From positions 1 to 64,000 of the forward strand of contig JBDRCC010000001.1 in assembly GCA_043822065.1 (NCBI GenBank): DNA of 64,000 nucleotides, read 5' to 3'. The position numbers and the translations under genes are program-made. Position 1 is the first letter of the stretch. Every line of letters begins with the position of its first letter. The notes below the pieces were generated by a model. That model had not been told where the DNA came from, made no database searches, and saw nothing but the letters and a program-made list of their open reading frames with translations. This DNA comes from an archaeon (lineage in GTDB: Archaea; Undinarchaeota; CAZHTU01; JBDRCC01). This document shows positions 49,528 through 51,334 of the stretch, piece after piece.

Positions 49528-49710
49528 ATGCCAGAAATTAAAAAACTTAATCCGCCAACAGTTGACAAAATAGTGACTAACATGGGGAAAGTGAATTTAG
49601 CTCCAGAGTCAATAACGGCTATTCGTGGGGTTATAAAGGAACAGAAAGATGGCGCCGACACAAATATTGTTGACTGCAAAGGCAACCCGAACATGCTGGG
49701 TCAGAAATAG
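49528..49710 (+). CDS. Small peptide A, candidate RiPP precursor (60 aa)
   Basis: Strong GGAGGT RBS, starts 1 nt after the rSAM stop; shares a motif with peptide B. Confidence 0.7.
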   Translation: MPEIKKLNPPTVDKIVTNMGKVNLAPESITAIRGVIKEQKDGADTNIVDCKGNPNMLGQK

Positions 49711-49758
49711 TTAGGATAGTTGTAGTAACATACGCTTTACGCGCTACTTGGCTTTATG

Positions 49759-51129
49759 CTAGTAGCAATTTTTTATTTTTGGCAGGGTATCCTCGATTAG
49801 CACGTCATACTCGGCTATATCTATGGGTTTGGTAAGAAGTCTGCCGAGGAAATATTTCACAACGTCTTTCATTGGGGTGCATATCTCCTTAGACGGTTTG
49901 AATAATGATCCTGTGAAGCTAAGATTATTATACGGACAATAGCCCGCGCATATGTACTTACAAAAACAGGAAGCGCAGGCATTTATACGATGGACAGTAA
50001 TATTTCGTATTAAATTAAGCTTCTTGGGATTTATGCGCACCTTGTTGCCGTTTATTGAGCCATAAACAAAAGTATTGCATACGCTATCGGTAAGATCGGA
50101 TGCAACCAAACAAGAGAGTATTTTACCTCTGGGGTGAACCACAAACAAAGGGCCACTTGAGTTGCATCCATAAATGGTCAACCCAAATGGGCTCATCTGC
50201 AGACCCGACAGATAGATGCCATGTTTCTCAGCAAACTCTATGCAGCGCAATGATTCGTGCACAAACTTTTCAAGATCAGGTAGTTGCAAGGCAGATGCCC
50301 TGCCAAACTGCCGGCATGGAGCGAAAGAAACCCGCTTTATCTTTAGGGAAACAAAATGCTTAAGAATTTCCATCATACGCCCCTCACAGTATTTTGTAAA
50401 GGTTGCAGATACCCCATAGGAAACGCCGTATTTATTAAACATGGCTATAGTTCGTCTAACGGAGTGGTATGATTTGTTTCCAGACAGCAAAGGCCGCTGT
50501 GCATTCTGAATAGAGGGGGGACCGTCAAAAGAAAGCTGGACATGCGCGCCGATTTTTTTAAACCATTTAACCTGCGATTCATTCAATGTCCCGTTAGTGG
50601 TAGAGCTAACCCTGAGTTCAATCCCTCGTGCATCACACTCCTTTTTTGCATAAGAGTAACAGCGTTTCATTAAATCAAACGCAAGGCTGGGTTCGCCTGC
50701 AGAAAAAAGCGATAGAAGGAAGGTTTTGTCACTTTTTTTAATTCCGTAGTCTATTGCTGTCTTTGCTATGCTCCACGGCATGTAATAAACCGTAGTACTG
50801 CCAGTATTGGAACAACAATAAGTACAGCGCATATTGCAATCAGTAGTCAATAGGAGAGTTACAGTAGGTATGGTAGATAACGCCGCCCTCAAGGTAGGCA
50901 CGGTATCTTGGGAGTCAACGAATTTGAAAAATCCTGTGACTAATCGGTGATTAGTATTTCTTTGCTCTACAAATTCCTTGTTTACGAGCGCAAGTATTCC
51001 CTTTTTTGGGACATAAATTATGTACTTGTTCGATTCGTAGGGAATAGTAAAGTGTTTGGATTTTGTTTTTGAAGGAACTGTCTTAGAATAACATATTTTC
51101 ACGCTTTTGTATATCTTAGGCGCAGCCAT
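49759..51129 (-). CDS. Radical SAM/SPASM domain peptide maturase
   Basis: CNMRCTYC, SFDG, SPASM cysteines GCNS..GKILSC..CASCFCKYICAGYC..C. Confidence 0.9.
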   Translation of the reverse strand: MAAPKIYKSVKICYSKTVPSKTKSKHFTIPYESNKYIIYVPKKGILALVNKEFVEQRNTNHRLVTGFFKFVDSQDTVPTLRAALSTIPTVTLLLTTDCNMRCTYCCSNTGSTTVYYMPWSIAKTAIDYGIKKSDKTFLLSLFSAGEPSLAFDLMKRCYSYAKKECDARGIELRVSSTTNGTLNESQVKWFKKIGAHVQLSFDGPPSIQNAQRPLLSGNKSYHSVRRTIAMFNKYGVSYGVSATFTKYCEGRMMEILKHFVSLKIKRVSFAPCRQFGRASALQLPDLEKFVHESLRCIEFAEKHGIYLSGLQMSPFGLTIYGCNSSGPLFVVHPRGKILSCLVASDLTDSVCNTFVYGSINGNKVRINPKKLNLIRNITVHRINACASCFCKYICAGYCPYNNLSFTGSLFKPSKEICTPMKDVVKYFLGRLLTKPIDIAEYDVLIEDTLPKIKNCY

Positions 51130-51202
51130 TGAAGTGTAGTACCTACCTAACTTTAAATAGTATTTGACAATATTTATATCCTATTGCCATATTATATTAT
51201 TG

Positions 51203-51334
51203 ATGGTTTCAGTAGTGCACCCACTATTAAAAAAGGATGTAGAACGGATTGTTTCAAACTTGAAGAACTTGCATTTGGAGGATGCAGAGGCTAATGAGTT
51301 TATTGAACAGATAAGTGATCTATGTAGTGGCTAA
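51203..51334 (+). CDS. Small peptide B, candidate RiPP precursor (43 aa, not in ORF track)
   Basis: Manual translation MVSVVHPLLKKDVERIVSNLKNLHLEDAEANEFIEQISDLCSG; TATA-like TTTATA upstream; similar to peptide A. Confidence 0.65.
   Translation: MVSVVHPLLKKDVERIVSNLKNLHLEDAEANEFIEQISDLCSG

Follow-up and report, generated by a model that had tools for sequence, protein, structure and literature searches.

We describe a block of low G+C content (GC) in the chromosome of an archaeon of the Undinarchaeota that probably directs the synthesis of a ribosomal peptide modified by radical S-adenosylmethionine (radical-SAM) enzymes. The block lies at ~47,700-55,450 (~7.7 kb) of the 64,000-nucleotide stretch analysed here, which we call the window (assembly GCA_043822065.1, contig JBDRCC010000001.1, positions 1 to 64,000). 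Its gene order is B12a, encoding a B12-binding radical-SAM enzyme; the small gene pepA; a SPASM radical-SAM maturase gene on the minus strand; the small gene pepB; unk336 on the minus strand, encoding a protein of no family; B12b, encoding a second B12-binding radical-SAM enzyme; and the gene of an M29-like peptidase. In the reading that we prefer, and to which we give an even chance, the pepA product is the main substrate of the island's enzymes and the pepB product is an old, diverged second copy of it. The island is ~40% GC, compared with 53-57% in the genes on either side and 51% in the whole window; because of this contrast we read it as horizontally acquired, and it looks like a foreign block in an archaeal chromosome. 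The features at the centre of the argument are given below, with lengths in nucleotides (nt) or amino acids (aa).

49513..49522, plus strand: Shine-Dalgarno-like GGAGGGAGGT, 5 nt upstream of the pepA ATG, read from the sequence
49528..49710, plus strand: pepA, candidate precursor peptide, 60 aa, its ATG 1 nt past the B12a stop
49561..49599, plus strand: shared leader block VDKIVTNMGKVNL of pepA, residues 12-24 (block alignment, segment score 29)
49675..49683, plus strand: C-K-G of pepA (Cys50), followed by 8 further residues
49759..51129, minus strand: SPASM radical-SAM maturase, CteB-like, 456 aa, with an N-terminal domain resembling a recognition element (RRE) for peptides that are ribosomally synthesized and also modified post-translationally (RiPPs)
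51130..51202, no strand: AT-rich divergent intergenic stretch with TATA-like boxes, a putative promoter as judged from its bases
51203..51334, plus strand: pepB, probable second, diverged precursor, 43 aa when read from its ATG, pointing away from the SPASM gene
51239..51277, plus strand: shared leader block VERIVSNLKNLHL of pepB, residues 13-25 (block alignment)
51323..51331, plus strand: C-S-G of pepB (Cys41), the C-terminus of the peptide

The identity of the SPASM enzyme is carried by its cysteines and its fold. In an alignment of 56 sequences (the window protein, three database proteins and 52 of 80 fetched loci, the latter chosen by eye for complete open reading frames (ORFs) of ~425-490 aa, with L014 and L020 left out for internal stops), the radical-SAM CX3CX2C cysteines C98, C102 and C105 are invariant, and so are the SPASM cysteines C322, C340, C385, C388, C394, C398 and C417 together with G335. 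The seven-cysteine SPASM motif has the form C-x9-15-G-x4-C ... C-x2-C-x5-C-x3-C ... C. The enzyme matches the Pfam Radical_SAM family at 8.2e-13, and CteB is its best solved match both by profile (5wgg, 2.1e-75) and by fold (Foldseek, 5why/5wgg, template-modelling (TM) scores of 0.69-0.76 over 433-453 columns, which is near full length). An AlphaFold2 model, with a predicted local distance difference test (pLDDT) score of 86.5, places strands at residues 27-32, 35-40 and 45-50, followed by helices, with pLDDT ~90 over residues 27-72. In this model the segment would have an RRE-like, that is peptide-recognition, layout; no PqqD/RRE family in Pfam or NCBIfam matched residues 1-90. The top curated relatives PapB, SCIFF and QhpD are named as thioether-forming or Cys-peptide maturases. 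Complex predictions of the enzyme with pepB scored 0.00 in two runs made without controls, and we give them no weight either way.

We find pepA convincing as a real small gene because it combines a Shine-Dalgarno-like sequence and an ATG 1 nt past the B12a stop with the best coding score of the six frames, the latter in a model trained on the whole window and in one trained on the island alike. Its stop lies 48 nt from the stop of the SPASM gene, and its sole cysteine, C50, sits within IVDCKG. The Atlas structure model of pepA has a pLDDT of 0.43, a low confidence that would fit a substrate peptide; an Atlas search with pepA gave no usable feature match, and its structure rows are meaningless at that pLDDT. 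A small gene adjoining a maturase gene describes both candidates: pepA adjoins B12a and the SPASM gene, and pepB adjoins the SPASM gene. The RiPP precursor layout proposed in an earlier, sequence-only reading of this DNA is well supported by gene context but as a whole in part, being weakened in that both peptides are orphans, their leader's binding is a prediction and pepB is a gene only in probability.

For pepB we lean towards a real gene, presumably expressed, with somewhat better than even confidence. The gap at 51130-51330 is the only intergenic gap of the island able to hold a peptide gene (the others measure 14-110 bp), pepB is the only sizeable ORF in it, and the gap around pepB has a GC of 33%. 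The ATG lies 73 nt from the start of the SPASM gene, within a stop-to-stop frame at 51161-51334, and the sole cysteine of the 43-aa form, C41, sits within ISDLCSG, so that only Ser and Gly follow it. TATA-like boxes occur at 51152-51159 (TTTAAATA) and at 51173-51179 (TTTATAT), the second ~27 nt before the ATG. In archaeal promoters, a TATA-like box at about that distance from the ATG suits a leaderless transcript, and the spacing of TTTATAT would suit such a transcript of pepB if the box has a promoter role. Among its six frames the pepB frame scores best in the whole-window-trained and the island-trained coding models, and under the model trained on the low-GC island genes both pepA and pepB lie above 83 of 83 spurious ORFs. 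The sequence-only reading held that the ORF track had missed pepB; the gene is indeed absent from that list, but purely as a matter of length, and the exact 43-aa protein is already present in a public protein collection, which implies that an automated gene caller settled on this ATG too.

The two peptides resemble each other in a register that is fixed from their starts. LNPPTVDKIVTNMGKVNL (pepA residues 7-24) and LLKKDVERIVSNLKNLHL (pepB residues 8-25) pair with an offset of 1 and share a core, VDKIVTNM in pepA and VERIVSNL in pepB, that is one residue out of register. Four blocks match in the same order, namely PEIKK/PLLKK, VDKIVTNMGKVNL/VERIVSNLKNLHL, DGADTN/EDAEAN and CKG/CSG, and the leader consensus reads P-x-[IL]-K-K, then V-[DE]-[KR]-I-V-[TS]-N-[ML]-x-x-[VL]-x-L, then an acidic [DE]-x-A-[DE]-x-N. 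By our own reading, the shared leader hydrophobics at i, i+3, i+4 and i+7 would fit an amphipathic helix. The coordinates, translations and motifs first reported for both peptides proved exact, the shared motif does lie at nearly the same distance from the start in each (the offset being that single residue), and a single cysteine in each, in IVDCKG and ISDLCSG, is confirmed.

How far this likeness exceeds chance depends on the measure. Scored as a chain of collinear blocks with a flat penalty for every jump, the pepA/pepB pair gave 71, 49 and 37 at three jump costs. Among 3000 shuffles, 6, 13 and 16 did as well; among 400 real 43-aa segments of window proteins, 1, 2 and 3; and among the tails of 508 other small ORFs (their last 43 residues), 1, 0 and 1. 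The three other ORFs of the pepB gap scored 16-31 at the two stricter jump costs, compared with 37-49 for pepB. The Smith-Waterman score of the pair, 30, was reached in 120 of 5000 shuffles of pepB and in 112 of 5000 shuffles of both peptides (p ~0.024). The pairwise alignment proposed at the outset exceeds its shuffled controls modestly. The 8-residue motif occurs in only these two of 1409 six-frame ORFs, having been defined from them. Homology is modestly supported by these comparisons: it would be real but unproven, at a nominal ~0.2-2% that weakens when post hoc choice is allowed for.

Several observations, assembled in this paragraph and the next, weigh against the reading of pepA and pepB as two related substrates. 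The evidence for paralogy is a single weak pairwise match, which no further sequence joins: BLASTP of pepA against pepB gave no alignment at E<=100, a Smith-Waterman score of at least 30 against pepA is shared by 11 of 1190 small window ORFs (9 of 1188 besides pepA and pepB), and both the collinear-block statistic and the motif were picked after the pair had been seen. The similarity does beat several controls at the ~0.2-2% level. The gene itself has no Shine-Dalgarno sequence upstream, runs antisense between two minus-strand genes, against the direction of the flanking operon, and its stop overlaps that of the convergent 336-aa gene by 4 nt. Its coding signal varies with the training set: in the model trained on the whole window (51% GC) rather than on the low-GC neighbouring genes, pepB scores -0.039, below 93% of real gene chunks and exceeded by 13.2% of 394 spurious ORFs, so this model does not separate it from them. 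Frames of its size arise in 5-15% of composition-matched random sequences (a 57-codon stop-free run in 657-751 of 5000, a 43-codon ATG ORF in 270-276 of 5000). All of this would be expected if pepA were the sole precursor and pepB a chance frame in the AT-rich divergent promoter or 5' region, its likeness to pepA coincidental, and so would the lack of a pepB homologue among the proteins, plasmids and small ORFs searched. We nevertheless think this explanation rather unlikely, because the four collinear blocks are exceeded by only 0.2-0.7% of natural controls, the motif is equally far from the ATG in both peptides, the island-trained model ranks pepB first of its frames and above every spurious ORF, and the gene caller chose the same ATG. 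A very improbable variant is that pepB is real from the TTG at 51164, just inside the frame that opens at 51161; the resulting 56-aa protein, with a hydrophobic start of ~20 residues (a membrane anchor or signal) and a second cysteine, would be an immunity or regulatory protein and not a substrate. The TTG, however, is separated by only 35 nt from the divergent start of the SPASM gene, and stands upstream of the 51173-51179 box and just downstream of the 51152-51159 box; its island-trained coding score is 0.091 as against 0.135 for the ATG form, the public protein is the 43-aa form, and only from the ATG is the register shared with pepA.

The other adverse points concern relatives and chemistry. 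A word-indexed search of 5.8 billion clustered proteins with pepA and pepB returned only the window's own proteins, a full HMMER search of 1.84 billion representatives with pepA returned only itself, tblastn of both against plasmids gave no match, and no relevant family, and no curated leader or precursor model, was found for either in Pfam or NCBIfam at E<=10 (pepB has one family match, to an RNA-binding-protein model that is unrelated, with E=0.062 and 13.2 bits for a cut-off of 291). We also kept 80 related loci, of at least 385 confirmed candidates in species-representative genomes, with SPASM identities of 23-34% (the closest SPASM relative in the protein collection has 31%). Among the 19,788 small ORFs of these loci none matched the motif, and the best E values across the pepA+pepB profile and the single-peptide searches were 7.3, 6.6 and 1.3; the best pepB match reads by eye as an FtsL-type ORF, and several top matches are short, start-less fragments. 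The motif profile that the sequence-only reading had proposed for finding kin near SPASM genes brought none among these ORFs, and no conservation of pepB emerged in the collections searched. By tblastn at E<=1e-3, B12a, pepA, pepB, unk336, B12b and the M29-like protein were each found in 0 of the 80 loci, and the ABC exporter encoded beside the island in 10. No related locus carries this gene set, which like both peptides is unique within what was searched. The SPASM enzyme falls below every curated family cut-off (nif11-rSAM 140 bits for 518.7, PapB 125.5 for 340, SCIFF 111.9 for 425, QhpD 93.9 for 453), and its next solved relatives, anSME and the cyclopropylglycine synthase TigE, are non-thioether enzymes, so the chemistry is not fixed by fold. 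Sactipeptide and ranthipeptide precursors carry several donor cysteines with downstream acceptors, a layout that pepA and pepB lack; and because only Ser and Gly follow the pepB cysteine, pepB is at odds with the canonical crosslink, in which the acceptor lies downstream of the Cys. One could conclude that neither small ORF is the substrate and that the enzymes modify a larger protein or a non-peptide, with pepA (and pepB, if real) as an accessory. Both peptides are Cys-poor, 21 large leader-bearing proteins lie downstream of SPASM relatives in 18 related loci, B12-radical-SAM families, by their names, also act on lipids and cofactors, and archaeal CrpC is reported to modify a Cys-rich protein and not a short peptide (PMC13692751). 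We consider this quite improbable, given that no larger island protein is Cys-rich or bears the bacterial leader, that pepA is modelled with low confidence, as if disordered, that it starts 1 nt past the stop of a modifying-enzyme gene, and that an RRE-like domain, if the model is right, would imply a peptide leader.

Returning to the reading in which pepA is the main substrate and pepB probably its second, old and diverged copy, we envision that the RRE-like domain would bind the shared N-terminal leader, and that the SPASM enzyme, of which this domain is a part, would then act at or close to the single cysteine of C-x-G, with one thioether as the most likely product. B12a and B12b would most likely add C-methyl groups, the M29-like peptidase would trim the product, and the neighbouring ABC exporter would export it. 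The thioether assignment fits the nearest families and is strained, and non-canonical, for pepB. A bolder version, which we regard as unlikely, makes the island a private archaeal RiPP class, with two diverged precursors that carry an orphan leader, a CteB-like enzyme acting on a lone Cys-x-Gly, two B12-dependent C-methylations and a SelO/MchC-like activation; because pepB ends two residues after its Cys, the link would then run upstream or be another reaction. If the peptides are substrates, the island is a compact system of ~8 kb, suited to expression, in which a non-canonical crosslink and the C-methylation of archaeal peptides could be sought. On our reading, it also shows that archaeal chromosomes can gain a RiPP cluster as an island of foreign origin. 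Should pepB be a chance ORF, what is left is a radical-SAM RiPP cluster of the ordinary kind, uncharacterised and with a single precursor. We see the island as a reasonable expression target rather than a surprise.

Compared with known systems, the island lies outside every curated family: its enzymes miss the cut-offs, its peptides belong to no known leader family, and each has one Cys rather than many. By analogy, it would work as a CteB/PapB-type thioether pathway joined to B12 methylation of the proteusin or ApyD kind. CteB, the thioether maturase of the SCIFF peptide CteA (5wgg, 5why), resembles the SPASM enzyme in its CX3CX2C motif, its seven SPASM cysteines and, if the model is right, an N-terminal domain of the peptide-binding type, and differs in sequence, with 19-21% identity in structural alignments. 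SCIFF precursors have six Cys in ~45 residues; pepA and pepB, with a single Cys apiece, fit no SCIFF model. Also related to the SPASM enzyme are QhpD and the PapB-type ranthipeptide maturases, which make Cys to Asp/Glu thioethers, and both peptides do have an Asp near the Cys. In the products of known thioether maturases the acceptor lies further downstream than the Cys, and the PapB substrate motif is Cys-x3-Asp; the PapB acceptor is thus downstream of the Cys, whereas the Asp of pepA and pepB stands 1-2 residues upstream of it and pepB ends two residues after it.

Archaeal radical-SAM RiPP clusters have been widely predicted by genome mining, with few products known (PMC12144867). The closest archaeal parallel is CrpC of Methanococcus voltae, a SPASM radical-SAM enzyme with a predicted RRE that is reported to install ranthionine crosslinks on the neighbour-encoded CrpA (PMC13692751). 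We liken the two by description and not by sequence; CrpA is a Cys-rich protein, unlike the Cys-poor pepA and pepB, and B12 enzymes, of which the island has two, are not mentioned in the abstract or outline of that account (PMC13692751). ApyD is a B12-radical-SAM enzyme described as methylating the C-beta of Tyr in a RiPP precursor (PMC10635010). It is the best curated relative of B12b, at 256.9 bits for a cut-off of 750 and over positions 23-431 of a 645-position model; unlike the island, the Apy cluster encodes MNIO and P450 enzymes but lacks a SPASM enzyme (PMC10635010). Microcin maturation requires MchC, which belongs to the SelO family, and the MchC/MceJ siderophore-microcin systems offer a kinase-like accessory enzyme within a ribosomal-peptide maturation cluster, which unk336 may possibly be as well (PMC3281104). 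Unlike those systems, the island lacks a partner of the HlyC type. In the literature searched, no cluster combining these enzymes was listed.

The remaining genes of the island and the adjoining exporter are as follows.

45958..47682, plus strand: ABC exporter, membrane domain plus ATPase, without a peptidase domain (Pfam ABC_membrane 7.4e-48, ABC_tran 6.7e-29)
47736..49526, plus strand: B12a, B12-binding radical-SAM enzyme, 596 aa (Pfam B12-binding 7.7e-12, Radical_SAM 2.1e-15)
51331..52341, minus strand: unk336, 336 aa, no family
52453..53760, plus strand: B12b, B12-binding radical-SAM enzyme, 435 aa, distant ApyD relative
53775..55418, minus strand: M29-like metallopeptidase, 547 aa (Pfam Peptidase_M29 3.6e-17, residues 362-505 only)

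Both B12 enzymes score above the gathering thresholds for PF02310 and PF04055, which is the class B layout, and both fall below the cut-off in all curated functional families (ApyD, the RiPP C-methyltransferase TIGR03975 and others). The best NCBIfam matches of B12a are BchE, HpnR and ApyD, all far below their cut-offs, and its best solved relative is OxsB (7e-11); the solved relatives of B12b are AprD4, TsrM-like and TokK. The C-terminal 176 aa of B12a matched no family in Pfam or NCBIfam. As a separate observation, this extension of ~180 aa (window 48996-49526) could be a second peptide-binding domain. The M29-like protein, possibly a leader-trimming peptidase, has PepS as a relative (1.8e-4), is 40% GC and is the last low-GC gene of the island. 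The ABC exporter lies 53 bp upstream of B12a on the same strand and may serve the cluster; with a host-like GC of 53.6%, it is no more than a possible member of the island.

The protein unk336 offers only a lead towards a kinase, SelO or MchC-like accessory enzyme. It has no Pfam or NCBIfam match at 0.01 and no match to Pfam SelO (PF02696) even at E<=10, a phmmer search of the PDB returned no match with E below 0.97, and a weak NCBIfam match to Bud32 stands at E=0.027. Its Atlas features point to unnamed bacterial clusters (0.97), with an MchC-named cluster at rank 13 (0.94), and the Atlas structure search to a SelO-domain cluster (TM 0.62); an AlphaFold2 model built without an alignment has a pLDDT of 36 and is unusable. 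The stretches HGAMELNN and, further on, ADFE resemble the catalytic loop of kinases and their DFG region, except that Ala replaces the catalytic Asp, as it does in some pseudokinase- or SelO-like proteins.

Two kinds of protein accompany the SPASM relatives in the related loci. Cys-rich small proteins (64-124 aa) lie directly downstream in four of them, one in a metagenome-assembled genome of the Pacearchaeota, and none of the four has an NCBIfam match; this neighbourhood counts in favour of a peptide substrate for the island's enzyme. The 21 large proteins (~350-1300 aa) lie just downstream in 18 bacterial loci.

L006 3861-4235, L011 3514-3876, L043 8088-8327 and L016 9317-9511: Cys-rich small proteins
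L003, L005, L008, L015, L017, L018, L019, L020, L022, L023, L029, L035, L037, L039, L040, L041, L059 and L065: loci with large leader proteins

The large proteins share a conserved N-terminus, KPxFxLxRV...PEI[IV]PV...RRGFLGxG, which looks like a leader before a twin-arginine-type signal, and they may be protein substrates of this SPASM clade. Two of the 21 were scanned and show weak beta-propeller-type repeats (delta-60, PQQ/ScyE-like) below the cut-offs. The idea that pepA or pepB carries this bacterial leader was rejected: a hidden Markov model of the 21 leaders ranks pepA 40th of 1409 window ORFs (E=28) and does not report pepB, two results to be set with the adverse points above.

The island sits among archaeal housekeeping genes, which in the window include those for a flap endonuclease, a proteasome beta subunit, aCPSF1, a CCA enzyme, an archaetidylserine synthase and TYW1. 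It is bordered by the ABC exporter and a DNA ligase on one side and by pentose-phosphate genes on the other. A repeat search found no convincing flanking repeats at its edges, and no plasmid or phage record matched the complete island by blastn. On the pentose-phosphate side, two adjacent ORFs of 269 and 333 aa (window 56123-57873), overlapping by ~60 nt at their listed starts, read by eye in translation as a transketolase-like protein split in two, with neighbours that, judged likewise, resemble ribulose-phosphate epimerase and transaldolase. Elsewhere in the window, an Rfam tRNA match of 107 nt at 37395-37501 is absent from the ARAGORN output, and its length suggests an intron-containing archaeal tRNA. 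A second low-GC islet (window 42950-44200, 36-45% GC) carries a Fic-domain gene at 43133-44185; just upstream of it, the 15-nt sequence AATTAGTATACTAAA is repeated exactly and in direct orientation (at 42970 and 43083), and a palindrome spans 43077-43104.

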